A stretch of DNA of 64,000 nucleotides, taken from positions 38,955 to 102,954 of the forward strand of contig CAYUTO010000002.1 in assembly GCA_964447765.1 (NCBI GenBank), given 5' to 3'. Positions 7,155-59,349 of the stretch are shown here, piece after piece. Each line of letters begins with the position of its first letter. The stretch's first letter is position 1. The notes under the pieces were generated by a model that was not told the DNA's origin, did no database searches, and worked only from the letters and a program-made list of their open reading frames with translations. The position numbers were made by a program, and so were the translations under genes. The DNA is from an uncultured Gammaproteobacteria bacterium (lineage in GTDB: Bacteria > Patescibacteriota > Patescibacteriia > Magasanikbacterales > UBA922).

Positions 7155-10100
7155 ATGTTTTTTCTCTCCAAAAGAACAAAGAAGCATTCAGTCATCGCTA
7201 TTATTGCGGTGGTTGTAGTAGTGAATGTGCTTGGTTTTAATTTACTCCGTCCAACTCCGGTACGTGCGTTTGTCGACGTAAATCAGGGACTCAGAAACGT
7301 CACTGATAATATTGGTGATTCGCTGTTGGCTGCTGGACTGGGAGCTCTCGTTAATGGAGCATCGTATTTCATGCGAAAAATAGCGTATGATACGGCAAAA
7401 TATATTGCTTCAGGTGGAAAAGGGCAGGGAGCGCTTGCATTCCAGGATGGCTTTGGTAGTTATCTGGGAAATGTTGCAGCAGATAGTGCGTTTGATGCGA
7501 TTGATGAATTAGGAAAACCATTCGGTTTGAATATTTGTCAACCTCCCGATATACGATTACAAATTGGGCTTCAGGTCAGTATTTCAAATATTTTTGCTCA
7601 GGATGGTCCGCAGCCAAGTTGTACATACAATCAGTTTAAGGAAAAATGGGACAATGCACGTGATAGTTTGGTGGGTGATCAAAACTTACTTGAAAACTTC
7701 AATGTATCACTCAAAACTTCTCAAGGAAGTTTAGGAACAGCACTTTCAATTTTGGGAAAAGTAGACAGTATCGTTGCTAAGAGTGAGTTGGGGGCACAGT
7801 TGGAGCGACTTGAGGGTGGAGGATTTAAATCGATTACAGGACTTATTTCAGGTGAAATCAAAACTCCTGCGCAAATAACTCGTGAAGAAGCAACTGGACA
7901 ATTGACCGCAACAGCTCAAACCAAATCGAGTGCCGAACAAATTGCTGGACTCTACGGAGCAGATGCTCTTTCCATTTTCCCCATGGCTTTGTCAGTATTT
8001 GCAAATACTCTCGCAAGTACACTACTTCAAAATGTGCTTGAGAAAGGATTATTACCAACCAAAGGTGATCCTTCATCAGTTGCTGATTTTTATGCTTCCA
8101 CAGTGAACAGAAATCGTCAGATTGCAGAAACTGCATTCTCATACCTTATTGCAGGAATTCCACAAAGACCTTTGACTGCATATGACGTGGTCACTGAGTA
8201 TAGTACCTGTGGTAGTAATCCTGGGCTTAATAATTGCGTCATGGATTCAGGTCTTGCTCAGGCTCTTGATCGTGCTCGACTGGGAACACCGCTTACGATT
8301 GGAGAAGCGATGTCATCGCAAAATAATTTACTTCATGATGATTGGTTGCTGATAGCAGATCATCTCGAGGGTATTGACCCAAGTGTAAGTAAAACAAATC
8401 TTACTAATACTAATTTAGAGTATTGTCACAGTTCTGCATACTGTATTTCTAATGTTGAAAAATTGAGAAAAGCTCGTATTTTACCTTTGGGATTTGAAAT
8501 CGCCGTAATGAAATCTCCTCCAGATAATCCATGGAAATTAGGTGATGTGGTGAGAGGATTTAATACTTGTGATCCGAGTGGTAAGCCGAGCGATGCGTAT
8601 CCATACTGCAAATTGATTGATCCTAATTGGATACTCAAAGCTCCTGAAGCTCGCTGTGAAGCTCGGGTGTCTGGTCCTGAACTGTTGACCGAATCTACTC
8701 CAACGAGACGCGAGGAATGTGTAGATTTTTCAACATGCCTTGAAACAGATGAGAATGGTCAGTGTAAAGGTTTTGGGTATTGCACCAAAGAAGAAAATAT
8801 TTGGAACATGCCTGGTCAAGCCTGTGCCCCACAGTTTAATACGTGTAAAACATATGTTTCTGCTAGTGATGGGAAAATTGCCTCGTATCTTTCGCGTACT
8901 CTCGATGTAGAGTCATGTAGTGCTGATTCAATCGGATGTCGTGCCTATAGTCTGGATAAGGACGGAGATGCGTGGGTAACGTCAGCCGAAGCTGATCCTG
9001 CTACTGCATTTTCGGGACGCACACAAGCAATTCATTTCACGAATATTGCTCAGTGCCCATCGTCATCAGAAGGATGTTCGCTCTTCATGGATCCAACAAT
9101 TAGTGACGCCTCAAGTGATGAAGCCCGTGTATTCCTAAAAAAAGCCCCTGATTATTTACAATGCTATGACAGTGATCTTACAACTTCAGATGTAGTTGAA
9201 TGGCCACAAACTCAGGCTGAAATCGTGAAGCTTGATACACAAAAAGCTGCAGCATGTTCGGCATTTGCTGGAGCGTGTACAGGAGAAGAAGTAGGATGTG
9301 AAGTGTATGCTCCTAAAAATGGGGGAGCATCAGTTACTGGTATTATTGGGGGGAATAGCTGTCCTACTCAATGTGTAGGATACGAAACATTCAAACAAGA
9401 AGCTACTACATTTGAATCTGAGAAATTCCCCTTACATTTTATCGCGTCAAATGCCAGAACTTGTACTAGTTTGCAGGTAGGGTGTGATGAGTTTACTAAT
9501 ATTGGTGTGGCGAGTGAGGGTGGAGAAGCGCTCGAATATTATACTGCACTCAAGCGTTGTGAGCGTCCAAGTGGTGATAATAGTGGAGTATTTTATTCAT
9601 GGGAAGGGTCGGAAAGTCAGGGATACCAATTGAGACGAAACATTTTACTACCAATTACATCATCTGACCGCGACTACATTAGTAGTCATGGATTGAATTA
9701 CAAGTCGGGTGATTCACTTGAATCAGTATTCCCTGTGGGATCACCTGCATACGTAGAAGATCTCAAATCAGCCATGCAATCAAATTATGATCAATGTAAT
9801 CAGGAATCATATAATTTGTTATTGAATAATGTGTTGAATGATTCAAGAGTTGCTGATAATGATTGTCGAGCGCTCTATAATTCAAATGGACAAATTTTTT
9901 ACCGAGTATTCAGAAATACCGTAACCGTATCAAATTCTTGCACACCTCTTCGAAAGACCAATTCAGAATTGATGGTAGACGAAAATATTACTGCGGGAAA
10001 TGGGGGACAAACTCTTTGCGAAGCAAAAGGTGGAGTATGGGGTGCGGGAGAATGTAAACGTTGTGCGGCCGGTGGAACATACGAAGTAAATACTGAAGGA

Positions 10101-13100
10101 ATTGGTTCGTGTATCTATCAATCAATTAAAGCAGAAGCAACGAGTTGTCCTGCTGTCGCAAATGGATGTCGATCATATATTGGAAACACCGGTAATAATT
10201 TACAAATCATTACTACCTTTGGATTTGAGCCATCAGGAACCGGAGCAGCTGCACTTGATACAGCGAATGACGGATGGAGTGAGAATACGGTGGTCCAGGC
10301 AGAAGCACTACAGGTAGGGTTGCATTCTCTCAGGGTAAATGGACAAAGTACCAATTATACGTTTGAATCAGGGACATTACAGACAGGTGCGTGGTATGAG
10401 ATCCGTTTCTCTGCACGTGGTAATGCAGCATTTGGATTATCAATTGGATTTAGTCAGGGCGGGCAAAATATCGGGAATGCCTTTACTTACGACCCGTCGC
10501 TTAATCAGAATGCACCAGCTTCTATTGGTTCACAATGGCAGGAATATCGTGTAGGCCCCGTACAATTCACTGGTAATAGTAATGATCCTGTACAATTATA
10601 CTTTGAGGGATCTGGTGGTTCTCAGTTTTATTTCCTTGATACTATTGAATTTGCAAAAATTGGTGATTCAACAGATGATCATATTTTCCGTATAAAAAAT
10701 TCATGGAGAACTTCTGAAGGATACGAAGTTCCTCTTGCATGTGATTCGCAGCCTAATAATGGGCTTCCTGGTGAATATCTAGGATGTCGTGAGTATACAA
10801 ATAATGGAGTATCGTTCCCATTGACTGGCTTTGATCGACTCTGTCGTGATGAGGCAGTAGGTTGTCGTGCGCTTGTTGACACACAGAATACCGTTGAGGG
10901 AGTTCGTCCAGCAGAAAAACAGGCGTATGGAGTGGTGTGTCGAAAAGCTATTGGAGTAACATCGCCGACTCCATGTTCGGTTACACTGACTGAATCATCT
11001 ACCGTGTCTGCAACATATGGCTGTACCGTATCTCGTGGAGAACGCGAATGTCGGTTACCAAACCCTGTAGTAATTCCTGCACAAGCAGACGATGCGCCAG
11101 TGGTATTCGCGAATCTTCAGCAGGTCGCAGGCACTTGTATTTCGCTCAATGGATCATGTGCAATCAATAATAATGATAAATTAGTTATTGATGAATCTAC
11201 GGTTGTGGTGAAAGAAGATTCTGGTTTGATTTACCTTGCGGCACAAGATCAATTTGTATGTCAGGAAGACAACCTCGCATGTACCCGTGTAGGATTGGAA
11301 ACAAAAAATGTGAATGCAAATACGACGAGTGCATACAGTTATCAAGATGCATTTATCAAAAATGACCCACGTATTTATGCGGATATTTTGTGCTCGGGTG
11401 ACGAAGTAGGTTGTGCAGCATTCAAGAATGATAATTCTCTGGTGTATTTCAAGGATCCAGAAGTAAGTGGAGATACACAGTGTGTATATAAAGATAAGGT
11501 TACCCTGGGTGAAGGATTGGCAGCCCGAACGTACAGTGGATGGTTCAAAGATACAGGGAAATGCGCCGTGAGTAATCAGGAATGCCGGGCTGATGCGGAT
11601 TGTGGAGGGAATGATCGATGTATTGATATTGGTGTAGTACCATGTTACGAAAACTATCTGGATTCAGGTAATGAATACAGTATCTGGTCACAGGGAAGCC
11701 TGCAGTACGAAGGTAATGTGGGTATGTGCGATACTAATAACAATGGCTGTACCGAGCTTATTGATCGTGCGGCAATCACCTCTTCGACACCAAATGGAAA
11801 ATCCTACTATGCACTAATGAATGATCGACTCAAAGAAAATATTGCTCAGTGTGAAGGTAGAGTAAGTCAGAAAGAAGGATGTGTGTTATTCGATGTGACT
11901 GAGAATCCAGATAAAATCTTTGATACTTCAGCATCATATGATGCAAGTCGAGCAGCAACGCCGATTGATAGCCTGGTAAATCCAGTCCGCTCACAAAATA
12001 CAAATGATGCTAATTTTATTCTTAAGGTTGAGAGAGACCGTCAGTGTAGCGAGTGGCTTGCGTGTGGAAGCTCTATTACCGTGACTGATGAAAATGGTAA
12101 TGAACAAGTCTTATGTCAGCAATATATCGCATGTAGTAAATTCAATTCGACTGGAGAGTGTATTCAGCCAGTGAATACCTCGCAGGATAACTCGCAGATG
12201 ACTGAGGAAAAATATATTGCTCGAAGTACTGGCTGGACTGCACCAGAATATTCAGGGTACTCATTCTTTGGTCTGTATAATGCAAGTAATTTTGTTTACT
12301 TATTATTTGAAGGAAAAACAGAGGCATACATGGGGTATGAAATGAGTCATTCGTTTTTCCGTAACGAAGATGTGGGTGCAGGATGTCGTGCTACAGCTAA
12401 CATAGGAGGTGATACTAATTATGTAAAAGCTGATGGAGCCGTGTGTGGATTTGATGCGGGTGGACGATGTTATCGTCAGAGATGTATTTATCCAATCGAA
12501 GGAACGTTTGATTTTACTCCAGCTCCTGGAAATGATGTGGCTACGTCACAGGCAAATGTAGAAAAAATGTTGGTAGAGATGCAGCCAGGAATTTGTAAAT
12601 CATACCCAGAATCAACCAGTCCATTCTCTGTTGAGGTTGCAGTGAAAAATACTAATGAAGAAGTGGATATAAAAAGGAATGATGAATTTACCCGATATGA
12701 TTTTACTGAGAAAAAAGAATTATATGAGCGTGCAAATGTATGTCAGCCTGGTAGTGATTCCACTGATTGTTCGTGTGAATATTTGAAGGTTGAATACAAA
12801 AACGGAACCGTGGATTATTGGGCAACAAAAGATACTGAATTAGTAGCTCCTGGAATTTGTGTGGGGGGAGATAATGATGGAAACCCATGTGCTGCTGCAA
12901 GTGAATGTGGAGTTGGGGGAATGTGCAGTACGGTGAAGCAGAAAGGAACGTTTATCGGACAGCGTGGACTCTGTATCGAATATGATCTTAGTCGACCATT
13001 GGGAACTTCAAAATCTACTGCTCGATTGCACGAATCATTTGCCTGCCTCACCTGGCTTCCAATTCAGGTTTCAGCTTCATCAATTGATTTGAATAATCTC

Positions 13101-16100
13101 AATCCAGCCGCTGGGTACTATCCAGTGTCAAATTACGATTCTCCTCTTGGTGGGGGGCATGCATATTGTACGGAGAGCACGAATCGTGGTGCGGGATATT
13201 ATTTTACTGGTCTTGATGTTGAGGCAAACATAGGACCTTTCGGTACTCCTGGTTTGACTGGCGGTGAGAACATACGATTATGGGGTACGAATGTAGATGA
13301 CTTTACGTATTATGAGGATGTACCAGGTGTTCCAGGTGTCTTTAGTTCGAGTGAAACTATTAATTATGACACAATTGGTACGGTGGGAGGAAAATATAGA
13401 AGTCTGATGGAGTCTGCATCAGAAACAGCGGCACATAGATTGAAGATATATCGCGCAATACAGACGTGGGCGTGGAAACATATTGGAAATTCTGCTCGTA
13501 TTCTTCGGGTGGATGTGGCTGGAGGAGATACACCAAGGTATTATTATCCGAATAATGGTAAAATAAGTGATATAGATAGTAATATTGATATGCTTGGGTT
13601 TGCCCCAGATATTAATAACTCTGATATTACTCATGAAGATACGGGTACGGTAATGCACCCTCCAAGGTTGTTCAGTGCTGCTGGGATTGGGTTGGGCGAA
13701 TACTTAATGAACCCGGGAGATGGTGATTTTGGAATCATCGGAAGTGCTGCATTTTCTCCCGAGGTAAACAATAGTGCGGTACTCGATAAATATGTTGCGA
13801 TCGATAGAGAAGTTGAGAAAAAATTGAATGAAGAAGATATTCAGAGCATGCATTTTGTCCCTATAGCATATCCAGGCGGAGCAGAGGGTGATAATCCTGC
13901 AATGTTGACCAAAGAGTTGGCTATCGATTTCGCTAGTCTACGTTCTCTGCCCCGTGGACAGAATCGGGCATATCAAACTACTGTGCCCGCATACCGTGAT
14001 AATGATAATAATGAAGATCAGATTCGGTATAATACCTACGATGCAGATGAACAAATGGTACAGGTGGCATATCTGCTTGAACGAGGTACCAATGGGGTGA
14101 CTGGAGATGGGCTATTGTCGTACGGCGAGTATAAAGATGCGTCAGGTAGTTATTGGAGTGACTATCTTGGTAAGACAGATAAACATGAACGAACAAAAAT
14201 CCATCGTCGGTATGTATCATTGGTATTTAGTAAAAATGAGACAACATTCACAAGCTTGAATGTGAGTCCAACGCAGATTCCTTCAGGCATGTCTGACCCA
14301 TTTGCTACTAATGGTTGTGAAACTCCATCAAACAATATCTCAAAGAATTGGTTTGCAATTGGTATGGATTTCAATAAAGATGGTGAGTTCCTGGGGTACA
14401 TTTCTCGATGGTGTATGAATACACGAAATGAGGGAGACGAAGCAAATGGTATACGTTTTGCGACGATTGCACATATGCAAGATAGATGTCTCGAGTACAA
14501 TGCTGTTGTTGATAATCAGGTTGCTCTCAGTGGAGATAATAATAAAGCATGGACTGACCGTGTGTGGATTAATAGTACCTATCAGTCCGGATCAAGTTTA
14601 CTTGCAATTCTTAAAGCAGGGGCAACTGGGTTGGCACCATATGGATCACTCCCACAAAGTGTGGCGAGCGCTGAAATTCTCCGAGCAAATCCTACAAAAC
14701 CTGTTCCATCCTACGGTTTCCCGGATTATAATTTTGGTGTGCAATATCAGTGTAGTGGTGGTGATGGTTTTTCGAATGACCCGCGTTCTCTATTTGGTTC
14801 AAAAAATTGTGCACGTCCTATTGGAGAGTCAGAAAGTATTACCAACATCACTTTCGAGATTAGTAGGGATCCAAAAGAAGGGCGAGACAAACTTCGTGAG
14901 TTGTTCATGAAATATTATGAAATGAAGAATTTTGAAGCCATTGGTATTGCTCCAAAAGATATTAATACTTTTAACCCTGAAGTTATTGCAGATTTAGGCG
15001 GTGATGTAGGTGCAATTGGTAATGCAACAAGACCTCCGCAGATCTTCTCGATCAATCCATATACCTGTAGTCAAAGAGGAGGAAATTGTACTGCAGCAGA
15101 AGTAGATGCGTTTACTATAAATTTCAGAAACTTCACCTCTACTGATTATAATAATGATGGTAGTCCTGATGAAGATTCAAATCTGCAGGATGGAATCGAT
15201 CCGATTGTTGCCGAGGGAACGTATTATGCAATTGCAAACTTCTTTGCCTATGCCGATGACAATCGAATGCCTATCAAGAGTGTGAAAGTAGAGTGGGGTG
15301 ATAATTCATTCCAAAATGATAGTCCAGATGGATTGTATAAGAATCGAAAACCATACTGTGGTGCAACTGATAATTTTACGTATAACTATAATGCTAATAC
15401 AAATAGTGGACTAGGGCGCTGTGTAGGTACGCAGATTACCTGTAATAGCAGTGAAGATTGTCGGTATGCAGGAGTGAATGGCGCTGCAGTAGCGTGCGAG
15501 AGTCCAGGCATTCCAACTCCATCTCGTGTAGGTGTGTGTAGGTATACCCCAACAGGCCCTGCAACCGTTCCTGGTGTAGCATGCCAATCGGTCGATGAAT
15601 GTCAGCCGTATGATCCTGCCAACTATGTGACAGAGTGTGTACTACCAAATCAGGGTAGTGATCATAGTGGGGGGCAGTGTCTTTCGACTAGACGTCAAAA
15701 TACAGTATTTACCAATAATGTAGACTGTCAGCAGAGCAGTGTGTGTCCGCTTATAAGTGGTGCTGTTGCTGCATGTGATCTTCCCCCGCTTGCTACTCCT
15801 CCTGCAGGACAACGACATTTCGGAGACGCACCACGCGCATGTAGGAGTCAATACTTCGAATACGCACATACTTATCAGTGTACGAGTGCTGATACAAATG
15901 CGAAGGTCGGAGAGTTACAAAATTCTACAGACGATGGAGATCAAGAGGCGTACAGAAGATTGATCGGTCGGGCAGGAGTGACTCCTGAAACAGATATTTG
16001 TGTATTCATACCAAAGGTCCAGGTAATCGATAACTGGGGATGGTGTAATGCTTCACAAATAGCTGCATTAGAAGAAAATGGGGACTTTACACTTTGTCCA

Positions 16101-16214
16101 AATGATAATACAGGCAAAGGGTGTTACGAAGGTAATAATCAATTATGTAGCAGGTCGGTTAACGCTTATACTCAATATAAAGGTAAGATTATTCTACTAC
16201 CAATAAGTGAATAA
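7155..16214 (+). CDS. Giant (3019 aa) N-terminally membrane-anchored, cysteine-rich surface protein with an internal CBM/lectin-like beta-sandwich domain
   Basis: Single uninterrupted ORF. TM near the N-terminus (IAIIAVVVVVNVLGF). More than 12 copies of a G-C-x-x-[YFL] motif (GCRAYSL, GCEVYAP, GCDEFTN, GCRSYIG, GCREYTN, GCRALVD, GCAAFKN, GCTELID...). The region ...FEPSGTG...AWYEIRFSARGNAAFG...QWQEYRVG...FYFLDTIEF resembles CBM4_9 / galactose-binding-like domains. Confidence 0.7.
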   Translation: MFFLSKRTKKHSVIAIIAVVVVVNVLGFNLLRPTPVRAFVDVNQGLRNVTDNIGDSLLAAGLGALVNGASYFMRKIAYDTAKYIASGGKGQGALAFQDGFGSYLGNVAADSAFDAIDELGKPFGLNICQPPDIRLQIGLQVSISNIFAQDGPQPSCTYNQFKEKWDNARDSLVGDQNLLENFNVSLKTSQGSLGTALSILGKVDSIVAKSELGAQLERLEGGGFKSITGLISGEIKTPAQITREEATGQLTATAQTKSSAEQIAGLYGADALSIFPMALSVFANTLASTLLQNVLEKGLLPTKGDPSSVADFYASTVNRNRQIAETAFSYLIAGIPQRPLTAYDVVTEYSTCGSNPGLNNCVMDSGLAQALDRARLGTPLTIGEAMSSQNNLLHDDWLLIADHLEGIDPSVSKTNLTNTNLEYCHSSAYCISNVEKLRKARILPLGFEIAVMKSPPDNPWKLGDVVRGFNTCDPSGKPSDAYPYCKLIDPNWILKAPEARCEARVSGPELLTESTPTRREECVDFSTCLETDENGQCKGFGYCTKEENIWNMPGQACAPQFNTCKTYVSASDGKIASYLSRTLDVESCSADSIGCRAYSLDKDGDAWVTSAEADPATAFSGRTQAIHFTNIAQCPSSSEGCSLFMDPTISDASSDEARVFLKKAPDYLQCYDSDLTTSDVVEWPQTQAEIVKLDTQKAAACSAFAGACTGEEVGCEVYAPKNGGASVTGIIGGNSCPTQCVGYETFKQEATTFESEKFPLHFIASNARTCTSLQVGCDEFTNIGVASEGGEALEYYTALKRCERPSGDNSGVFYSWEGSESQGYQLRRNILLPITSSDRDYISSHGLNYKSGDSLESVFPVGSPAYVEDLKSAMQSNYDQCNQESYNLLLNNVLNDSRVADNDCRALYNSNGQIFYRVFRNTVTVSNSCTPLRKTNSELMVDENITAGNGGQTLCEAKGGVWGAGECKRCAAGGTYEVNTEGIGSCIYQSIKAEATSCPAVANGCRSYIGNTGNNLQIITTFGFEPSGTGAAALDTANDGWSENTVVQAEALQVGLHSLRVNGQSTNYTFESGTLQTGAWYEIRFSARGNAAFGLSIGFSQGGQNIGNAFTYDPSLNQNAPASIGSQWQEYRVGPVQFTGNSNDPVQLYFEGSGGSQFYFLDTIEFAKIGDSTDDHIFRIKNSWRTSEGYEVPLACDSQPNNGLPGEYLGCREYTNNGVSFPLTGFDRLCRDEAVGCRALVDTQNTVEGVRPAEKQAYGVVCRKAIGVTSPTPCSVTLTESSTVSATYGCTVSRGERECRLPNPVVIPAQADDAPVVFANLQQVAGTCISLNGSCAINNNDKLVIDESTVVVKEDSGLIYLAAQDQFVCQEDNLACTRVGLETKNVNANTTSAYSYQDAFIKNDPRIYADILCSGDEVGCAAFKNDNSLVYFKDPEVSGDTQCVYKDKVTLGEGLAARTYSGWFKDTGKCAVSNQECRADADCGGNDRCIDIGVVPCYENYLDSGNEYSIWSQGSLQYEGNVGMCDTNNNGCTELIDRAAITSSTPNGKSYYALMNDRLKENIAQCEGRVSQKEGCVLFDVTENPDKIFDTSASYDASRAATPIDSLVNPVRSQNTNDANFILKVERDRQCSEWLACGSSITVTDENGNEQVLCQQYIACSKFNSTGECIQPVNTSQDNSQMTEEKYIARSTGWTAPEYSGYSFFGLYNASNFVYLLFEGKTEAYMGYEMSHSFFRNEDVGAGCRATANIGGDTNYVKADGAVCGFDAGGRCYRQRCIYPIEGTFDFTPAPGNDVATSQANVEKMLVEMQPGICKSYPESTSPFSVEVAVKNTNEEVDIKRNDEFTRYDFTEKKELYERANVCQPGSDSTDCSCEYLKVEYKNGTVDYWATKDTELVAPGICVGGDNDGNPCAAASECGVGGMCSTVKQKGTFIGQRGLCIEYDLSRPLGTSKSTARLHESFACLTWLPIQVSASSIDLNNLNPAAGYYPVSNYDSPLGGGHAYCTESTNRGAGYYFTGLDVEANIGPFGTPGLTGGENIRLWGTNVDDFTYYEDVPGVPGVFSSSETINYDTIGTVGGKYRSLMESASETAAHRLKIYRAIQTWAWKHIGNSARILRVDVAGGDTPRYYYPNNGKISDIDSNIDMLGFAPDINNSDITHEDTGTVMHPPRLFSAAGIGLGEYLMNPGDGDFGIIGSAAFSPEVNNSAVLDKYVAIDREVEKKLNEEDIQSMHFVPIAYPGGAEGDNPAMLTKELAIDFASLRSLPRGQNRAYQTTVPAYRDNDNNEDQIRYNTYDADEQMVQVAYLLERGTNGVTGDGLLSYGEYKDASGSYWSDYLGKTDKHERTKIHRRYVSLVFSKNETTFTSLNVSPTQIPSGMSDPFATNGCETPSNNISKNWFAIGMDFNKDGEFLGYISRWCMNTRNEGDEANGIRFATIAHMQDRCLEYNAVVDNQVALSGDNNKAWTDRVWINSTYQSGSSLLAILKAGATGLAPYGSLPQSVASAEILRANPTKPVPSYGFPDYNFGVQYQCSGGDGFSNDPRSLFGSKNCARPIGESESITNITFEISRDPKEGRDKLRELFMKYYEMKNFEAIGIAPKDINTFNPEVIADLGGDVGAIGNATRPPQIFSINPYTCSQRGGNCTAAEVDAFTINFRNFTSTDYNNDGSPDEDSNLQDGIDPIVAEGTYYAIANFFAYADDNRMPIKSVKVEWGDNSFQNDSPDGLYKNRKPYCGATDNFTYNYNANTNSGLGRCVGTQITCNSSEDCRYAGVNGAAVACESPGIPTPSRVGVCRYTPTGPATVPGVACQSVDECQPYDPANYVTECVLPNQGSDHSGGQCLSTRRQNTVFTNNVDCQQSSVCPLISGAVAACDLPPLATPPAGQRHFGDAPRACRSQYFEYAHTYQCTSADTNAKVGELQNSTDDGDQEAYRRLIGRAGVTPETDICVFIPKVQVIDNWGWCNASQIAALEENGDFTLCPNDNTGKGCYEGNNQLCSRSVNAYTQYKGKIILLPISE

Positions 16215-16370: not shown

Positions 16371-16889
16371 TCACCGGTAGAACGTGGTGAGCAGCGAAGA
16401 GCCTGGCAGGTCAGCTCGGACATCCTTTCGAATGAGGGCCTCTCCTTCGATGAAGAGATAGCTTGTATATTCGTGGATGCCTGAAGCCCATTGACTCGAC
16501 AGCGGTAGCGTCTTGCCGAAGAAGCGTTGTGTGCCGCAGCCGTCGCAGGCGAAGATGAGTTCGCACTGGTCGCCAGCAGCAGAGACCTGGACCGTGATCT
16601 CGAGTCGATCACCGTCGATCAGGTTGTTGTCGCTCTCGCACCACCAGATTCCCCGTAGGTCGAAGAGATCTTCGCAGAGGTCCTCGGCAGTGAGTGGTGG
16701 TGTGAACGTGTCATTTGTGGCGGTATCTGGGACCGCCGTGTAGGTGTCGGGCTGGTGGGGATCATCTCCCTTACCAGTGTCCGACGTATCGGTGGTAGTG
16801 ATTGGACCAGGTTCGACACCTGGATCCGAAGAGTCGCAAGCCGCCATCGCGAGGGCGGCAGCGATGACGGCAATCATCCTGCAGAGCAT
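16371..16889 (-). CDS. Lipoprotein (GC-rich island A); signal peptide with lipobox ALAMAAC
   Basis: MLCRMIAVIAAALAMAACDSS..., T/D/P-rich linker, 4 Cys. GAGGAG SD sits 8 nt upstream of the ATG. Local GC is far above the flanks. Confidence 0.6.
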   Translation of the reverse strand: MLCRMIAVIAAALAMAACDSSDPGVEPGPITTTDTSDTGKGDDPHQPDTYTAVPDTATNDTFTPPLTAEDLCEDLFDLRGIWWCESDNNLIDGDRLEITVQVSAAGDQCELIFACDGCGTQRFFGKTLPLSSQWASGIHEYTSYLFIEGEALIRKDVRADLPGSSLLTTFYR

Positions 16890-24256: not shown

Positions 24257-25309
24257 ATGGAAGAACCAAAAATAATTGATACGATGAACAGAATTTCCCC
24301 AAACGCATGGAGGAATAGTATCTGTGTAGTAGTCTTGAGCGCGATTGCGACTGGTTGGGGACTGTATGTATTTCATGGTCGTCTCTACAAACCGCTTGAG
24401 CTCACTGAGTCTGAGCAGACTATGCTCGTGGTGAATAAACCAATCACCGAAGTAAAGGGAATAAAAGAATATCGTCCCTATATCATTGGGGGAGATGTCG
24501 CTCATACGGTGATCATGCCAAAAAAACGGGACATGTTTATCCCGTTTGATATGAGGGGAATTTCTGCTGAGACCGTGTTGATAAAAGATATGGAAACCGG
24601 GGAAGTGTTATTTGGTAATAATGAATACACTTCTCGTTCGCTTGCGAGTATTACTAAATTGATGAGTGCACTAGTTCTCGAAGAACGTGTCTCTGATTGG
24701 AATGCGGTTGTTGCAAGTCCTGCTGATACGATCTTTGATTCCCACATATATGCCTATGACTCAACGTCCCTTGAAGAATGGTTTAGGGTTGCATTGATTG
24801 GATCATCTAATCGCGCAATGCTTACCTTGGTTGATGGTAGTGGGTATACACGCGAGGAGTTTGTTAATCGCATGAATGAAAAAGCTTTTGAATTGGGGAT
24901 GACTGATACTCATTTTACAGAGCCTACCGGAATTGATTCCGGGAATGTTTCTACTGCGTCAGATGTCGCTCTTCTTCTTCGTGAAGCATTGCGTCACGAG
25001 CATATTGTAGCCTCACTCGGAATACACTCAATTGATCATCGGTCTTCGGTAACAGAAAAAACAACCACTATTCGGAATACAAATCGATTACTAACTCAAT
25101 GGGTTGTGAATGAATTTGCTGAATCAGTGATAGGAAAAACAGGCTATATCGTCGAGTCTAAATATAATTTTGCAGGTAAATTTTCAAAAAGTTCTGAACG
25201 TCAGTTGTTGGTCGTAGTGCTTGGGTCAGAGAATGAAACAACGCGTTTTACGGATGCATCAACTCTTGCTGGTTGGGCATTTACGAACTATGAATGGGTT
25301 ATTAACTAA
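24257..25309 (+). CDS. D-alanyl-D-alanine carboxypeptidase (serine-type, peptidase S11 / PBP5-like), membrane-anchored
   Basis: SxxK motif (SITK) in RSLASITKLMSALVVLEE. SGN-like and KTG (GKTGY) motifs present. N-terminal TM. Confidence 0.75.
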   Translation: MEEPKIIDTMNRISPNAWRNSICVVVLSAIATGWGLYVFHGRLYKPLELTESEQTMLVVNKPITEVKGIKEYRPYIIGGDVAHTVIMPKKRDMFIPFDMRGISAETVLIKDMETGEVLFGNNEYTSRSLASITKLMSALVLEERVSDWNAVVASPADTIFDSHIYAYDSTSLEEWFRVALIGSSNRAMLTLVDGSGYTREEFVNRMNEKAFELGMTDTHFTEPTGIDSGNVSTASDVALLLREALRHEHIVASLGIHSIDHRSSVTEKTTTIRNTNRLLTQWVVNEFAESVIGKTGYIVESKYNFAGKFSKSSERQLLVVVLGSENETTRFTDASTLAGWAFTNYEWVIN

Positions 25310-25321
25310 GACATGAAACAA

Positions 25322-26281
25322 TTAACTTTTGTTCGTTGTTTCATGTTCGTTGCTAATAGTAAGAAGTACAATTTCCGGCATGCAGAATAATCGTGCACGC
25401 GGCTCTGATTCTCCCAGTCCTCGTGAAACAAATAAATACTCTCCTTTTCGTTCAGGTTCGTGAAGTCCTTGATATAAGTTTTTGGGGAGGAGGTTGTCTG
25501 CTTTTGCGAGTGGTCCGATATAGGGGAGTCGGAGCTGTCCTCCGTGAGTATGTCCAGAAATCGTCAAGTCAATTCCTTCGGGGTGAGGGTGGTAGAGATA
25601 AGCTGGATTATGGACAAGGGCAATAATAGGAAGTTGGGTGTCTCTCGTATTAACAGATGAATAATTGAGCGTATTTTTCCACACTTCATCTCCGCCAAAT
25701 AAATAGAGTTCCTGGTTTTTGATTTTCAATTTGAGAATTTGGTTTTGAAGGTATTTTATTCCATATGAGTGGAGTATTTTTTTTGTGTGCTCACTCACAT
25801 CGGCATATCGTTTCTGTATAGGGTTAGTACCGATATGATCACTCAGTCCATATTCGTGATTTCCATGAACGGCGTAGACTGGATATTTTTCAGTTAATTT
25901 TTTGAGTGGAGATAAGTAATTCACTTCATCTTGGTGGGGTACACAATTAAAGGTATGATCACCAACCAATACCACTATATCCGGATTAAGCTTAATGGTT
26001 TCTGCGACCACGCGTTCAAAAAAACTAGTCTTTTTATATGGACCTGCATGTAGGTCAGTAAGTACAGCTATGGTAAATTCATGGCGTACCTTGGAAAGTT
26101 TAATTGGTACGTGTTTTATTTCAATTATTTTTGGTTCAATAAAACTTCCCCAGATTAATACAATCGCTGCAATCAGGGAAAAAACTGAGAGCAGAGGAAT
26201 AAATAATAAAAATGCTAGCCACATGAGGAGGCCAAGTAGGATTCCACTACCAATGATTGAATCGTAATATACAGGTTTCAT
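25322..26281 (-). CDS. Membrane-anchored metallophosphoesterase (calcineurin-like, YkuE-type)
   Basis: VLTDLHAGPY, GDHTF, GNHEY, GHTHGGQ phosphoesterase motifs. Two N-terminal TM helices. Confidence 0.8.
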   Translation of the reverse strand: MKPVYYDSIIGSGILLGLLMWLAFLLFIPLLSVFSLIAAIVLIWGSFIEPKIIEIKHVPIKLSKVRHEFTIAVLTDLHAGPYKKTSFFERVVAETIKLNPDIVVLVGDHTFNCVPHQDEVNYLSPLKKLTEKYPVYAVHGNHEYGLSDHIGTNPIQKRYADVSEHTKKILHSYGIKYLQNQILKLKIKNQELYLFGGDEVWKNTLNYSSVNTRDTQLPIIALVHNPAYLYHPHPEGIDLTISGHTHGGQLRLPYIGPLAKADNLLPKNLYQGLHEPERKGEYLFVSRGLGESEPRARLFCMPEIVLLTISNEHETTNKS

Positions 26282-26377
26282 ATGTTAGTCTAATTATTCT
26301 TGAAGAAGAATAGTATTCAAAGATGAGGTGGAGTCTAGCATAGCATGTTCTTTTTGTACACATTAGGTATTCAAAAA

Positions 26378-26455
26378 CCGCATACAAATGCGGCTGCGTG
26401 TGTTGGTAGGGAAAGGTCGAGCAGCGCGTTGTGTTGCGCTGTACTCGACCTTTCC
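26378..26455 (-). terminator. Tandem hairpins: an 18-bp GC-rich stem, then a ccgcat/atgcgg stem with a U-run. Terminator of island-B gene 1.
   Basis: ggaaaggtcgagcagcgc...gcgctgtactcgacctttcc (26409-26455), and ccgcatacaaatgcgg preceded on the plus strand by aaaaa. Confidence 0.65.
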
Positions 26456-26462
26456 TCGGTGT

Positions 26463-27068
26463 TCATCCTGCCTTCCGCGCATCTTGCGCAGGACTGAAGA
26501 TGAACTTTTCTTTTCCCCCGCGACCATGATAGGTGATCGAACCACTGGTGGTCTTCGCATTCTTACCTGTGCGATGCCAGGTGATGGTGGTACCAGGAGA
26601 CATTACGAGAAGAACTTCGTAGATTACTCCGAGGTAGGCGAGTCGGAGAGAATCTTTTCGCCACTTCTCTCCCGACGCAATAGTGATCACCTTGTTGTTC
26701 GTATCGAGCCAGGCTTTGCCTTGGTCGCCAGACTCAATATGGAGGAGGACGAGAACTTTGTCCTCGATCATCGACTTCAGCCACGGTTTGACGATGAGAG
26801 GTTTTCCATTCCCTCCAATCACCACCTCGGCTTCGGCGAGATAGCGGCGCTCGCCCCTCTGTTCCATGCCGTCTTGGTTGGCACGTGTGAAGGGTTCGCG
26901 GATTACCAGCTGTCGTTCAGTACTTAAACTGAGATGAACAAATGTGCCATGTCTTCGAGGTCCTACACCAATGGGGATTGCGAGTCCATCACTGTGTGTG
27001 AAGAGTTGGATCTTTGGAGTATGTTTGTTCGCTCCATCTCGTTGGACTTTGATATCACTGAAATACAT
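26463..27068 (-). CDS. Hypothetical protein (GC-rich island B, gene 1)
   Basis: ORF track 26463..27101. Internal ATG at 27068 has SD GGAGGgaacaATG. No recognisable motif. TTGACT-17-TATCCT promoter candidate upstream. Confidence 0.5.
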   Translation of the reverse strand: MYFSDIKVQRDGANKHTPKIQLFTHSDGLAIPIGVGPRRHGTFVHLSLSTERQLVIREPFTRANQDGMEQRGERRYLAEAEVVIGGNGKPLIVKPWLKSMIEDKVLVLLHIESGDQGKAWLDTNNKVITIASGEKWRKDSLRLAYLGVIYEVLLVMSPGTTITWHRTGKNAKTTSGSITYHGRGGKEKFIFSPAQDARKAG

Positions 27069-27164
27069 TGTTCCCTCCAAGGAAAATGGGTTTGGCTGCA
27101 CATAGGATACTATAAATAAGCTAAAAAGTCAAGGTTAAAGGGACGAAAAGTCTTGTGTATAAAC

Positions 27165-27250
27165 AAAAAACATCCCAGATTAATTAGGATGTTTTATTGA
27201 AGACCGGCACTACTTTATCTAAATTTTATTTAGACAAAGTAGTTGTGGCC
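27165..27250 (-). terminator. Two tandem hairpins. The first is followed by a U-run. Terminator of island-B gene 2.
   Basis: aaaacatcc...ggatgtttt stem plus tract; then ccggcactactttatctaaat / atttagacaaagtagttgtggccgg imperfect ~22-bp stem. Confidence 0.55.
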
Positions 27251-27313
27251 GGCCTCATATGAATGAACGAGATCTCCACGGTTGCTCCTACCCCACGAAT
27301 GGGAGAAAGTAGT

Positions 27314-27814
27314 TTACGACCGGAGGAGGGTGAGGATGTTAGCGAGTCGGCTGCTGAAGCTTGTCGGCGGAGGGGCCAAGCGCTTCATGATGATCTCGAG
27401 AGCGAGAGTGAGCTTCGCCTTTGCTACTCGACCTTCGCCTTCGAAGTCGCCGAGGTAGAAGTGCAGGATGTCTGCTTGGTAAGGTCCGGTTATTTCATCG
27501 GCACTCCCTTCGTCTACTCGAGTGATCTTGATATAGAACACCCAGAGTCCATCGACTGAGGAGTCGTCGGAGGCATCGCCGGCTATGTTTGCCAGAGGAC
27601 CCCAGACAAATTTTTCTTCACGCTCCGTGAAGTTGCCCATTCCATTCGCGTTGCGCAGGTAGACCTGCACTTCACCACCTTCGCAGGTAGCGAGTCCGTT
27701 CAGAGGCTTCAATGCCTCGTGGAGTGAGCCGAGCCACTTTGCCAGAGCTGAGTCAGGACCATCCTGGCTTTCCAGAATGCCGGATTCTGGAAGAGGCACC
27801 GTGATACTTTTCAT
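27314..27814 (-). CDS. Hypothetical protein (GC-rich island B, gene 2)
   Basis: The ORF track extends it to 28084, but that N-terminus overlaps tRNA-Leu. First ATG beyond the tRNA is at 27814. TTGACA-17-TAATTT promoter candidate at ~27860-27890. Confidence 0.45.
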   Translation of the reverse strand: MKSITVPLPESGILESQDGPDSALAKWLGSLHEALKPLNGLATCEGGEVQVYLRNANGMGNFTEREEKFVWGPLANIAGDASDDSSVDGLWVFYIKITRVDEGSADEITGPYQADILHFYLGDFEGEGRVAKAKLTLALEIIMKRLAPPPTSFSSRLANILTLLRS

Positions 27815-27902
27815 TGTCTGTCCATTGTAGAAAGTGCATACCGAGATTCGGCATGGTCGAGAACGACCTATGAAATTATCAGCTTCTCTTCTTTTTGTCA
27901 AG

Positions 27903-27931
27903 AATAGGGGATAAAAAAGAAGTCTTATTAC
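27903..27931 (-). terminator. Terminator of tRNA-Leu
   Basis: agaagtctt-attac-aagacttct, with an A-run on the plus strand (U-run on minus). Confidence 0.65.
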
Positions 27932-27936
27932 AAGAC

Positions 27937-28020
27937 TTCTCATTAGTGCCCAGAGAGAGAATCGAACTCTCACGATATTGCTATCACGGGATTTTGAGTC
28001 CCGCGTGTCTACCAATTCCA
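27937..28020 (-). tRNA. tRNA-Leu (anticodon CAA), type II with a long variable arm
   Basis: Reverse complement GCCCAGATGGTGGAATTGGTAGACACGCGGGACTCAAAATCCCGTGATAGCAATATCGTGAGAGTTCGATTCTCTCTCTGGGCA; anticodon loop CTCAAAA. Confidence 0.8.
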
Positions 28021-28116
28021 CCATCTGGGCATTTTTCACACCATTGGTGAAGATGAGTATAGCCTTTACTCGTACACTTGTCAACGATATGCTATACTGT
28101 ATGAAGCAAAATACCT

Positions 28117-31603: not shown

Positions 31604-31646
31604 GTATATTTATATAAAATGCAGTGTGCGCTATAAAAATAGCGAA

Positions 31647-31679
31647 GCCCTGTCACGATGAATCGTGCAGGGCTTTTTA
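31647..31679 (+). terminator. Bidirectional rho-independent terminator (rel on plus; small-membrane-protein operon on minus)
   Basis: gccctgtcacga-tga-atcgtgcagggc, then ttttt. Confidence 0.7.
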
Positions 31680-31696
31680 CTTCAGCCATCTCCTCC

Positions 31697-31972
31697 TCAG
31701 TGATGGCTGGTATGTGTGTGTTTCTTTTTTTCGTCCTTCTTCTTGTCCTCCAGTTCAGAAATCTTCTCGAAGGGGTACATGATCGCTTCCCCTATACTCG
31801 GTGTGAAACCGACTGTGACTAGGAAGAACATTCCTAGAACGAAGTTTACATCAAAGAAACAATATGTGATGTACAGCGCCACGATTCCGAACCATGGGAA
31901 CTTGGCCCCTTCTTTCTTCTTCTTTTTCTTCTTCTTGGCTTTGGAGCCGTGACCGTGTGCGTCGTGAGACAA
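31697..31972 (-). CDS. Small 2-TM membrane protein with His-rich termini and a K8 tract (island C, gene 3)
   Basis: MSHDAHGHGSKAKKKKKKKKEG...HTHTSHH. TTG start preceded by GGAGGtgtcta. GC is elevated relative to the flanks. Confidence 0.5.
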   Translation of the reverse strand: MSHDAHGHGSKAKKKKKKKKEGAKFPWFGIVALYITYCFFDVNFVLGMFFLVTVGFTPSIGEAIMYPFEKISELEDKKKDEKKKHTHTSHH

Positions 31973-31982
31973 TAGACACCTC

Positions 31983-32228
31983 CTATGGAGTGGGTGTGTT
32001 CCTTGATTGGTACTCTCTCCAGAGCCAGACGCAGAGCCAGCCGAGGAGAGTGAATACTAGGATACACAGATTGATGAATGCCTGGATCATCCACGCCACG
32101 ATGGCGAAGGTGATGAATACACAGAATCCGATTGGTCCAGAGTTCAACGCGAGGTTGAGCAATATGACGAACATCCCTATCTTGATCCATGGAATATCCA
32201 TCTGTATACGTTCTTTTTTACGGAACAC
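31983..32228 (-). CDS. Small 2-TM membrane protein (island C, gene 2)
   Basis: Hydrophobic helices FVILLNLALNSGPIGFCVFITFAIVAWMI and LCILVFTLLGWLCVWLW. GTG start with AAGGAG 5 nt upstream. The ORF track starts 2 codons earlier. Confidence 0.45.
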   Translation of the reverse strand: MFRKKERIQMDIPWIKIGMFVILLNLALNSGPIGFCVFITFAIVAWMIQAFINLCILVFTLLGWLCVWLWREYQSRNTPTP

Positions 32229-32239
32229 AGACACTCCTT

Positions 32240-32464
32240 CTATTTTGATTTGAGAGTCTTCTCACGTTTGGATATTACTGCACCTAAGAGGACTATGAGC
32301 GGGGAGATGAGGAACTTGGCGATGCCTCGTAGTGTCGGCGGATGATTGTGAAACATTCCGGCGGACAGAGAGTTGGCGAAGTCCATCATGCCTAGCATCA
32401 CAGAACAGATGATGCATGTAATCAGGTAACCTATGATCAAAAGGACAATGACACCCGTCATCAT
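32240..32464 (-). CDS. Small 2-TM membrane protein (island C, gene 1)
   Basis: MMTGVIVLLIIGYLITCIICSVMLGMM...LISPLIVLLGAVIS. AAGGAGAcggat-ATG SD. Confidence 0.5.
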   Translation of the reverse strand: MMTGVIVLLIIGYLITCIICSVMLGMMDFANSLSAGMFHNHPPTLRGIAKFLISPLIVLLGAVISKREKTLKSK

Positions 32465-32530
32465 ATCCGTCTCCTTGGTTGTTTGGGTGACCCCACAGTA
32501 TAGCATATTTGAGTGATTTTGTCAATACAA

Positions 32531-32551
32531 AAGAGCCATATTTTGGCTCTG
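32531..32551 (-). terminator. Rho-independent terminator downstream of topA
   Basis: On the minus strand: agagcc-aaaatat-ggctct then ttttgtatt. Confidence 0.6.
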
Positions 32552-32608
32552 TTGAGATAAAAAATAAATCCCTGAACGGATCAGAGATTTATGATATGAA
32601 GTATATAT

Positions 32609-45778: not shown

Positions 45779-45815
45779 TGGTGTGTAGATACGTCAAAAG
45801 AGTGGAAAATCGTCC

Positions 45816-45854
45816 CCAGTTTGCATTGACAAACTGGGTTTTTTTGTGTATACT
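45816..45854 (+). promoter_or_regulatory. recG rho-independent terminator whose loop contains the -35 box of a consensus promoter TTGACA-17-TATACT driving the island-D gene
   Basis: ccagtttg-cattga-caaactgg then gttttttt. TTGACA at ~45826 and TATACT at ~45849. Confidence 0.65.
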
Positions 45855-45919
45855 CCGCCAGTCTGTTCCACAGGGGCAGGCACCGTCACGCACGAAAGTG
45901 CATTATCAGGAGTCTCACT

Positions 45920-46405
45920 TTGAAAGAATCGGTTCTCAATCGGATCAACAAGATGTCCTATGAGGAGGGTGCCAACCTCCTCACGAACCTCCGCCTGAAC
46001 GCGATCCCTCCGTACCGTCTCCACACCCACCCCGTCGAGTTCACGATCCACACCTTCGGCGTCGACTGCGAGGCCAGGGTCAAGTCGGACACGATGGATA
46101 CGCGTCGTGCCATGAGTGATCTCGGCATGCCGCGGGTCCAGGAGATCGCCAACACGATCTACTTGCACCCGACGCTCGGGGAGGATGCTCTGAACGCGAT
46201 GCTCGACGGCAAACGTGTCGTGATCAACGTCCAGCGTCACCCGAAGACGGAGACGAAGCCCGCGATGCAGGCGGTTCCGATGGCGCCGGTCGAGGTCATC
46301 GCCTCGGTGCTCGACGACGTGCCGGAGGACAAGAGCAAGAAGAAGGTCGAGAACAAGTCTCGGCGCAAGCAGCAGCCCGCGGTCTCCGCGGAATTGCTCC
46401 ACTAG
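45920..46405 (+). CDS. Hypothetical protein (GC-rich island D, ~65% GC). TTG start with AGGAG SD.
   Basis: ORF track 161 aa. AGGAG sits 7 nt upstream of TTG. Opposite-strand ORF 45794..46492 is Arg-rich, typical of an antisense artefact in GC-rich DNA. Confidence 0.55.
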   Translation: MKESVLNRINKMSYEEGANLLTNLRLNAIPPYRLHTHPVEFTIHTFGVDCEARVKSDTMDTRRAMSDLGMPRVQEIANTIYLHPTLGEDALNAMLDGKRVVINVQRHPKTETKPAMQAVPMAPVEVIASVLDDVPEDKSKKKVENKSRRKQQPAVSAELLH

Positions 46406-46558
46406 GTCAAATGATCTAGTAAGAGAAGCAGGCGGTCGCCCATGGCGACTGTCCTGCGTCTCGAATACAAAATCCACACTCGAATCACGCAATAAGTCTC
46501 ATCTATATGGGAACTATCGCGGGAGGGCGAGTGTGGATTTTTGTTTTGCAGTGTATTA

Positions 46559-58706: not shown

Positions 58707-58964
58707 CTACGGAGCAGATCGGACTAAGCCGACAAACTCTATAAACGGCAAGTGGTCGCAAGTGATCAAGTCCTGTTCGGACTCGGTCAGCTCGACAAAC
58801 CGCTTTGCAAGTACAGTGTCTAAGGTCATCTGAATTCGCTGATGCATTCGCACCCAGATCGCTCGGAGTGCTATTACGTCAGTCGAATCCGGCAAGAAAA
58901 TCGTCTCGGCCAATGCCTCGGAGATGATTGTCTGCCAAACGCTTTCTTCGCTAGAGTTACTCAT
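58707..58964 (-). CDS. Hypothetical small protein co-transcribed with the TraR/DksA-like gene (island E)
   Basis: MSNSSEESVWQTIISEALAETIFLPDS... AGGAGagagcatc-ATG SD. The ORF track extends it to 59078 in another frame, overlapping the zinc-finger gene. Confidence 0.4.
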   Translation of the reverse strand: MSNSSEESVWQTIISEALAETIFLPDSTDVIALRAIWVRMHQRIQMTLDTVLAKRFVELTESEQDLITCDHLPFIEFVGLVRSAP

Positions 58965-59269: not shown

Positions 59270-59313
59270 AATTCACCTCTTTCGTGTAAAGGAACAAGTT
59301 AAGACAACAAAAG

Positions 59314-59349
59314 AATATATCATAAAATGACTATATTGTCAATAGTCAT
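59314..59349 (-). promoter_or_regulatory. Consensus promoter TTGACA-17-TATATT whose -35 lies in the centre of a 23-bp palindrome (atgactatattgtcaatagtcat). Promoter plus operator of the TraR/DksA-like gene.
   Basis: Read directly: palindrome 59327-59349; on the minus strand TTGACA at 59342-59337 and TATATT at 59319-59314. Confidence 0.6.

Follow-up and report, generated by a model that had tools for sequence, protein, structure and literature searches.

Between the gene for tRNA-Leu(CAA) and a metallophosphoesterase gene, the 64-kb stretch of contig CAYUTO010000002.1 analyzed here (referred to below as the window) carries two small GC-rich open reading frames, ORF1 and ORF2, both read from the minus strand and both beginning with ATG. 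The comparison of this locus with its relatives makes it probable that the two genes occupy autonomous single-gene cassettes, or slots, that together form an integrase-free replacement islet, in which conserved expression frames hold GC-rich orphan inserts. It should be noted that an earlier reading of the same DNA, the first-pass annotation, had located both reading frames exactly and had proposed that they form a decayed or minimal island integrated at the 3′ end of the tRNA gene, an interpretation that the present results do not support.

In the proposed model, a Candidatus Magasanikbacteria-type lineage of the candidate phyla radiation (CPR) keeps two slots at this position, each provided with its own sigma-70-type promoter, 5′-untranslated region (5′UTR), stable 3′ hairpin, and intrinsic terminator. 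Slot 2 is filled in every sampled relative, and its occupants all belong to a single orphan family (the ORF2 family) of proteins of ∼200 residues that are basic and predicted to be β-rich; the several deeply diverged allele classes of this family are each under purifying selection, and their distribution contradicts the phylogeny of the flanks. Slot 1 is facultative, holding ORF1, an unrelated 114-aa gene, or nothing. The non-coding frames would most likely double as expression signals and as homology arms, through which homologous recombination with DNA imported from related cells could exchange or remove the coding insert, with no integrase involved.

Inserts, flanks, and frames in related genomes

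The loci and contigs used for comparison are designated L001–L017. Their common gene order, (TopA-RelA/SpoT)-ParB-ParA-tRNA-Leu(CAA)-slot 1-ORF2 family-metallophosphoesterase-PeptS11-ScpB-ScpA, is present in three contigs of 44–81 kb from metagenome-assembled genomes (MAGs; L011–L013) and in L001/L002, which start at ParB, and portions of it are found on the short contigs L003, L004, and L006–L010. Among the loci that span it, synteny holds down to a metallophosphoesterase identity of ∼58–75%. The immediate neighbors in the window, ParA and the metallophosphoesterase, were identified by homology to Pfam-annotated genes of L001. The tRNA-Leu(CAA) gene occupies the equivalent place in L001, L003, L006, L009, L011, L012, and L013, and every one of the eight related lineages has an ORF2-family gene directly upstream of the metallophosphoesterase gene; six of these show it between the tRNA and the metallophosphoesterase genes, L004 and L007 being the other two.

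The divergence of ORF2 is decoupled from that of its surroundings. Between the window and L006, the metallophosphoesterase and PeptS11 are 94 and 96% identical, respectively, whereas ORF2 is 38% identical; the synonymous (dS) and nonsynonymous (dN) divergences of the flanks are 0.49 and 0.03, but in ORF2 dS is saturated (∼3.1) and dN is 0.59. Sliding nucleotide identity for the same pair is 0.40–0.56 inside ORF2 and 0.86–0.96 from ∼26490 on, and in the comparison of the window with L001, it is 0.76–0.93 over the tRNA and ORF1, 0.41–0.57 inside ORF2, and 0.70–0.86 outside ORF2. The breaks in identity are sharp and coincide with the ORF2 coding sequence (CDS). Conversely, distant genomes share one allele class of ORF2, class A, at 57–62% identity, which equals or exceeds the identity of their flanks (58–62%); for L004 and L007, ORF2 is 62% identical and the metallophosphoesterase 58%. 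At least five allele classes can be distinguished, the versions being homologous at 30–71% identity, and their distribution is incongruent with that of the flanking genes. When the ORF2 CDS is aligned with the class B allele of L001, only the first ∼16 and the last ∼40 nt align as nucleotides.

In slot 1, the variation concerns gene content. ORF1 was found in three lineages (the window, L001, and L003) and is absent from L006, L009/L010, L011, and L012, some of which (L006 and L009/L010) are very close relatives. In genomes that lack ORF1, the terminator of the tRNA runs directly into the promoter of slot 2, whose −35 box marks the boundary. In L013/L014, slot 1 contains a 114-aa gene, designated x114, with a GC content at third codon positions (GC3) of 0.74, which is not homologous with ORF1 (hhalign probability 0.1%) but is framed by the slot-1 promoter and 5′UTR hairpin on one side and by a nearly identical 58-nt hairpin and terminator on the other. 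Together, these comparisons show that the coding inserts are replaced or lost without regard to the genome around them.

Strict synteny across the clade, purifying selection, and the combination of strong promoters, a strong Shine-Dalgarno (SD) sequence, and stabilizing 3′ hairpins would equally suit an alternative in which ORF1 and ORF2 are ordinary, vertically inherited, fast-evolving lineage-specific genes, with ORF1 lost a few times, no exchange of alleles, and a GC content set by selection on mRNA or codons for expression. Some of the divergence values also agree with it: for the window and L001, ORF1 has a dS of 0.59, in line with the flank values (0.66 for ParA and 0.98 for the metallophosphoesterase), and the dS of ORF2 between L001 and L006 (1.05) matches a flank value of 0.94. 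However, vertical descent is contradicted by the comparison of the window with L006, because synonymous sites cannot outpace those of neighboring genes so far, and the sharing of class A by distant genomes and the non-homologous gene in slot 1 of L013 also tell against it. Translational selection was rejected as the source of the high GC3, since ribosomal protein L32 and all of the core genes have GC3 values of no more than 0.42, so that expression-related codon bias falls short of the 0.53–0.62 found in the two inserts. We regard inheritance of this kind as rather unlikely.

The replacement model also draws on the frames. The slot-1 promoter is kept in L001, L003, and L013, although the CDS downstream of it in L013 is unrelated, and the slot-1 5′UTR is conserved, with a compensatory change in L001 (CATGTCGA/TCGACATG), and is found also in L013. 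The 3′UTR of slot 1 folds with a z-score of −6.4 relative to shuffled sequence; its long hairpin is nearly invariant in L001 and L013 and is unique within the window, and the motif of its 5′ arm also trails the slot-1 CDS in L003 and L014. In slot 2, the −35 region, CTTGACTTTTT, is kept in all genomes that have upstream sequence, L008 being excepted as a contig that starts inside the promoter, and the −10 box varies (TATCCT, TATACT, and others). The 3′UTR of slot 2 has a fold z-score of −9.0 against shuffled sequence, and 8 of the 20 predicted pairs in this 3′ module are maintained through double changes among eight genomes. The frames are specific to this locus, as opposed to dispersed repeats, and were not found in viral contigs.

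The features of the locus are collected in Table 1. The promoter beyond the tRNA terminator and the terminator hairpins of each reading frame, as described in the first-pass annotation, were recovered by terminator scan, folding, and conservation, and each of the two reading frames has a promoter of its own. The same annotation was right about the existence of the tRNA gene and of its terminator but not about their positions: its tRNA coordinates, 27937–28020, are ∼10 nt away from those given by ARAGORN and Rfam, and its terminator, at 27903–27931, is displaced from the stem and T-run located by the scan. Two terminator hairpins and a second promoter separate the transcription units of ORF1 and ORF2, which do not form one unit because they are transcribed independently and their co-occurrence is not obligatory.

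Table 1. Features of the region from the tRNA-Leu(CAA) promoter to the slot-2 terminator (window coordinates)
Feature	Position	Strand	Description and basis
tRNA-Leu promoter	28056–28084	−	TTGACA-17-TATACT; 11/12 consensus positions matched
tRNA-Leu(CAA), intact	27946–28030	−	ARAGORN; Rfam RF00005, 59.3 bits
tRNA intrinsic terminator	27911–27941 (stem 27941–27917 + T-run)	−	11-bp stem; terminator scan, fold
Slot-1 promoter	27873–27901	−	TTGACA, 17 nt, extended −10 TGaTAATTT; read from sequence
Slot-1 5′UTR	27815–27872	−	Two small hairpins (GGTCGttctCGACC; CATGCCGAatcTCGGTATG), weak SD GGAC; fold
ORF1	27314–27814	−	166 aa, acidic, pI 4.7, orphan, GC3 0.62; facultative slot-1 occupant
Slot-1 3′ long hairpin	27200–27256	−	GGCCGGCCACAACTACTTTGTCTAAAT...ATTTAGATAAAGTAGTGCCGGTC; G-U pairs on this strand; fold
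Slot-1 intrinsic terminator	27161–27195	−	Terminator scan; compensatory changes between genomes
Slot-2 promoter	27104–27132	−	TTGACT-17-TATCCT
Slot-2 5′UTR	27069–27103	−	Unstructured (fold z = +1.0), strong SD GGAGGG at 27074–27079; conserved
ORF2	26463–27068	−	201 aa, basic, pI 9.9, predicted β-rich orphan, GC3 0.53; allele class A
Slot-2 3′ hairpin	26410–26455	−	GGAAAGGTCGAG..CAGCGC..GCGCTG CTCGACCTTTCC; no U-tract after; fold
Slot-2 intrinsic terminator	26371–26395	−	GCCGCATttgtATGCGGTTTTT; invariant CGGTTTTTGAATAC tail; fold; unique in window

Beyond the two slots, a small gene for a Sm_multidrug_ex protein (PF06695) lies between the metallophosphoesterase and PeptS11 genes in L001 (4467–4970), L007 (2433–2930), L011 (7686–7988), and L013 (7646–8146). 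The window has no such gene (25309–25322; the gap between the metallophosphoesterase and PeptS11 genes is 12 nt), and the same apparently holds for L006 and L012.

Coding status and protein families

Patches of high GC in an AT-rich genome often turn out to be RNA genes, and long antisense ORFs are also present at this locus, so it might be supposed that the GC-rich stretches represent structured non-coding RNAs and that the ORFs are frames left open by chance. Several results make this extremely improbable. In searches against Rfam 15, only tRNAs were matched, both at E ≤ 1 over 25.0–29.5 kb and at the gathering thresholds over the whole window. Orthologs in other metagenomes hold both frames open without stops, and the substitutions fall predominantly at third codon positions: the counts by codon position are 20, 9, and 53 for ORF1 between the window and L001 (dN/dS 0.15) and 40, 31, and 108 for ORF2 between the window and L004 (dN/dS 0.07). 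For ORF2 of L001 and L006, dN/dS is 0.19; values within allele classes range from 0.07 to 0.19, and the maximum in any comparison is 0.41. In addition, relatedness can still be recognized in the proteins at 35% identity, where the nucleotide sequences no longer show similarity. Because of the open frames, the third-position substitutions, and the dN/dS values within classes, ORF1 and ORF2 are, on this comparative evidence, protein-coding genes under purifying selection, which settles a point that the first-pass annotation had left open.

The proteins themselves resemble no characterized family. As the first-pass annotation had remarked from the sequences, neither is recognizable, and no credible match was found for either in Pfam, NCBIfam, PHROGs, or PADLOC. 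Extension of the PADLOC and PHROGs searches to 16 members of the ORF2 family gave nothing credible, the one PADLOC match having E = 0.035, and the same was true of Pfam with 10 relatives. ORF1 and ORF2 have no relatives among phage or plasmid records; a weak tblastn match, to the helicase of a Synechococcus phage (E = 5e-3), was dismissed as spurious. Scans of viral and metagenome contigs with both protein alignments produced no match, and a scan of a genome collection with the same alignments returned only the already-known MAG. In profile searches against PDB sequences, ORF1 gave matches only at the level of chance, and ORF2 gave none. Paralogy between the two was rejected (hhalign probability 0.2%), and inspection of the sequences by eye revealed no apparent signal peptide or transmembrane (TM) segment in either.

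A search of 5.8 billion clustered proteins yielded just two relatives of ORF1, with 85% (L001) and 55–57% (L003) identity. ORF2 has four close relatives, making five close alleles with that of the window, in addition to more distant members; an exhaustive profile search of 1.84 billion representative proteins gave 14 matches at E ≤ 0.001. One of these, P0015 (961 aa), is a eukaryotic protein with Ig repeats and was discarded as a chance match amplified by the repeats, and five of the 14 belong to a distant branch that has only the C-terminal β-rich core in common with ORF2. The 11 full-length family members of the Magasanikbacteria type all end in glycine (...RKxG, ...ATG, or ...GTG) and share an N-terminal M-x-x-x-(D/E)-I motif. 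In the alignment of 16 members (A4), the only invariant residues are Gly147 and Gly182, and it is because of this that ORF2 would appear to be less an enzyme than a structural scaffold whose surfaces vary. The existence of discrete, ancient allele classes, each maintained by purifying selection, in a protein of cytoplasmic appearance weakly suggests that balancing or frequency-dependent selection may act on ORF2, of the kind known from functions in recognition or conflict, such as immunity or phage defense.

The tRNA-Leu 3′ end and base composition

That the inserts lie directly at the 3′ end of a tRNA gene, with a GC content ∼3 to 3.7 standard deviations above the window mean and a presence/absence polymorphism of ORF1, is what a decayed or minimal genomic island or a prophage remnant would look like had its integrase and attachment (att) repeat since been lost. 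The atypical base composition, the abutment on the tRNA, and the variation in gene content that underlay the proposal in the first-pass annotation are all real, but the evidence for integration is not. No integrase was found, ORF1 and ORF2 having no match in Pfam, NCBIfam, or PHROGs and the immediate neighbors being ParA and the metallophosphoesterase. No tRNA k-mer of ≥12 nt recurs in the interval 15–40 kb, and patterns of 26 and 16 nt from the tRNA 3′ end, allowing ≤3 mismatches, match only the tRNA itself. The first-pass annotation had itself noted that neither an integrase nor a repeat of a tRNA fragment was visible, which these searches bear out, and the repeat of the tRNA-Leu 3′ end for which it had recommended a search is not there even with three mismatches. 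The only flanking repeat (D2, 22/30 nt) is low-complexity T-run and promoter sequence that is not conserved in relatives, and it was rejected as an att site.

The distribution of the genes is equally difficult to reconcile with an integrated element. No site empty of the whole element was encountered: ORF2-family genes are present at the equivalent site in all eight lineages, with a divergence as deep as the clade, and presence or absence concerns ORF1 alone. Conserved promoter/UTR and hairpin/terminator frames, and not att sites, delimit the variable segments. GC3 does not decay toward host values, and the genes have no phage, plasmid, or viral-contig relatives. Since related genomes retain the high-GC ORF2 family at this locus with no att remnant, the comparison of orthologous loci that the first-pass annotation had suggested goes against its proposal, and the reading as an integrated island is unsupported.

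Two further observations can be cited in favor of an island. The first is a distant member of the ORF2 family, P0024 (209 aa), which lies ∼500 nt downstream of a different tRNA gene, tRNA-Leu(TAA), in a lineage of 47–52% GC. It is found on three contigs (L015, 598–1822; L016, 7406–8630; and L017, 771–1995), two of which differ in the genes that precede the tRNA. Its GC3 is 0.78, compared with 0.35–0.57 in its neighbors, and it has a promoter of its own and a 5′ leader of ∼270 nt that is rich in GC and has no match in Rfam. Two other distant members of the family display neither adjacency to a tRNA nor high GC. The second concerns L007, whose ORF2 protein is the same as that of L009/L010. This contig lacks the tRNA; in its region 1–690, similarity to the sister contigs starts precisely with the final 4 nt of the tRNA (GCAC), with unrelated DNA (62% GC in the first 300 nt) upstream of the junction. 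The junction may reflect either an insertion at the 3′ end of the tRNA or a chimeric assembly; the upstream fragment contains no integrase, and its truncated ORF has no Pfam domain. Taking the two sides together, we find an island or prophage remnant unlikely.

The GC enrichment noted in the first-pass annotation is pronounced. GC content over windows of 400–500 nt reaches 0.52–0.56 at the locus, compared with a mean of 0.417 and a standard deviation of 0.038 for the 64 kb. By codon position, GC is 0.61, 0.43, and 0.62 in ORF1 and 0.57, 0.43, and 0.53 in ORF2, as against 0.53, 0.39, and 0.33 in 27 long host ORFs, and in all eight lineages ORF2-family genes have GC3 values of 0.48–0.62, whereas those of the flanks are 0.27–0.38. 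The surplus is chiefly in C-ending codons (C at third positions 0.40 and 0.32, host 0.16), part of this asymmetry being a strand bias common to all minus-strand genes. Polarized synonymous changes within class A are balanced (15 GC to AT and 13 AT to GC), which is weak evidence given the small counts and near-saturated sites. Because alleles with saturated synonymous divergence all keep a high GC3, the high GC is, to judge from these alleles, a stably maintained property of the inserts and not the fading trace of a recent transfer.

As to its cause, a codon link to the adjacent tRNA-Leu(CAA) was rejected, there being two and zero TTG codons in the two ORFs with CTC dominating, and GC-biased gene conversion was tentatively discounted on the inference that the frames, as the presumed sites of recombination, should be GC-enriched but are AT-rich. 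Candidates are a local bias in mutation or repair, selection acting at the level of the mRNA, and a gene pool of higher GC outside the present sampling. Literature searches on GC-rich accessory genes in Patescibacteria or Magasanikbacteria yielded nothing specific. Accessory DNA is AT-richer than the core in most bacteria, and a locus whose variable genes are richer in GC than the core, even after synonymous saturation, represents an unusual compositional rule.

Including this locus, there are five GC-rich mini-islets in the window. The other four (16371–16889 on the minus strand, 31716–32506, 45794–46492, and 58707–59330) consist of small orphan ORFs between conserved core genes, with GC3 values of 0.53–0.87 compared with 0.20–0.42 in the core. 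The islet at 16371–16889 contains a lipoprotein-like ORF of 172 aa and lies directly downstream of a giant Cys-rich protein of 3019 aa with an N-terminal TM or signal segment (7155–16214, plus strand). An ORF at 45920–46405 (plus strand) has a GC3 of 0.87. The only Pfam match in the four islets is that of a 102-aa ORF at 58961–59269 (minus strand; GC3 0.75), a DksA/TraR C4-type zinc finger (PF01258, E = 2.4e-9), which overlaps other candidate ORFs of its islet.

One of these four islets belongs to a second framed locus, which repeats the pattern of the slots and counts in favor of the replacement model; it is found between the RelA/SpoT and TopA genes (window, 31604–32608; L011, 1792–2166; L012, 1790–2409; and L013, 816–1618). 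It has a conserved promoter, TTGACA...TATACT (84% identical to that of L013), and a conserved terminator hairpin (85% to L012), and the inserts are GC-rich with no detectable nucleotide similarity between genomes: the window and L011 have small TM-like ORFs, L012 has x95, and L013 has the His/Asp-rich x181. A more ambitious interpretation can be built on these loci, in which CPR bacteria of this clade would exchange cassettes independently of integrases by a system not described before: the promoter and 5′UTR on one side and the near-invariant hairpin and terminator on the other would serve as docking frames, and either a new recombination mechanism that recognizes them or simply natural transformation would allow single GC-rich ORFs to be exchanged, gained, or lost. 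Such cassettes would form a genome-wide class (five islets, at least two framed loci), with a composition actively maintained by selection on mRNA or by an unseen pool of higher GC, and ORF2 would be a polymorphic recognition or immunity factor. We consider that there is only an outside chance that this interpretation is correct in full.

With respect to the more restricted model of slot replacement, a number of points weigh against it. The comparison loci are mostly short metagenomic contigs from strains that are not known, and the sampling they provide is thin, with eight lineages for ORF2 and three for ORF1. Recombination through the frames is deduced from patterns, no event or machinery having been observed, and some of the incongruence might be produced by lineage sorting of an ancient trans-specific polymorphism. 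The recurrence of tRNA-Leu adjacency in the distant lineage that carries P0024 is not predicted by pure homologous replacement, and the GC excess is not accounted for by the model. Regarding function, conserved residues of a catalytic type do not survive in the wider ORF2 family, and AlphaFold2 predictions from alignments of three and five sequences were poor, with predicted local distance difference test (pLDDT) scores of 54 and 49. Fold searches gave no match at E ≤ 0.001, with all query-normalized TM-scores below 0.3. A role in defense or recognition has no direct support, no credible PADLOC match having been found among the 16 family members.

Comparison with known systems

The strain-to-strain variation of ultra-small CPR genomes is little known, and this locus provides a compact example of it, in which alleles and genes are replaced inside conserved regulatory frames without the machinery of a mobile element. 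If the compositional rule proves to be general, GC-rich mini-islets could be a guide to the flexible gene pool of the CPR, which may include phage or host-interaction factors, and in the ORF2 family (∼14 clusters among 1.8 billion representatives) one would have a candidate for a polymorphic protein of recognition. Should the rule not be general, the locus represents two orphan genes at a variable site and nothing more.

The acidic ORF1 and the basic ORF2 might be taken for a type II toxin-antitoxin pair, but this was rejected: they are separate transcription units, ORF2 occurs without ORF1 in L006, L009, L011, and L012, and there is no family match. Core-genome hotspots of anti-phage defense occupy fixed positions between core genes, often near tRNAs, and their cargo varies between strains. 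The present locus resembles them in its fixed position between conserved core genes and in its variable cargo, a likeness confined to the population-genetic pattern, and differs in that the cargo is one small gene per slot with no credible PADLOC match (ORF1 and ORF2 match zero families of PADLOC-DB v2, the source of the defense models used here). With the cassettes of integrons, the slots have in common small, mostly orphan ORFs that can be swapped as units and an imperfect inverted repeat after each; unlike them, each cassette here has its own promoter and terminator, and the hairpins are specific to the locus and differ between slots. There is no adjacent integrase, and no attC core sites were identified. 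Since every gene is driven by a promoter of its own and no intI lies next to the slots (a negative that covers the neighborhood, the genome as a whole not having been searched for intI), the locus is not an integron array.

The nearest counterparts of the locus are the flexible genomic islands described for Alteromonas (PMC4898812), slot 2 behaving like a replacement island. Replacement islands are multi-gene clusters for surface polysaccharides or glycoproteins, the versions of which are wholly different gene clusters. ORF2 and slot 1 share with them an equivalent position, divergent versions that drift apart, conserved flanks, and exchange that is disconnected from the core phylogeny. However, the replaced unit of slot 2 is a single gene of 0.6 kb encoding a protein of cytoplasmic appearance, its versions are still homologous (30–71%), and neither ORF1 nor ORF2 contains a glycosyltransferase or other Pfam domain that would point to a glycan or glycoprotein cluster. 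Additive flexible genomic islands in the same study often have a partial direct repeat of the tRNA and arise by site-directed recombination, and tRNA-Leu is among the hotspot tRNAs (PMC4898812). They differ from the present locus, which has neither repeat nor integrase, contains single framed genes, and never lacks ORF2 in the sampled lineages. By analogy, slot 1 may be likened to a miniature additive hotspot at a tRNA, without the tRNA repeat or a site-specific recombinase, having in common with the additive islands its location on the 3′ side of the tRNA, a presence or absence of cassettes that is unrelated to strain phylogeny, and a content of mostly hypothetical proteins.

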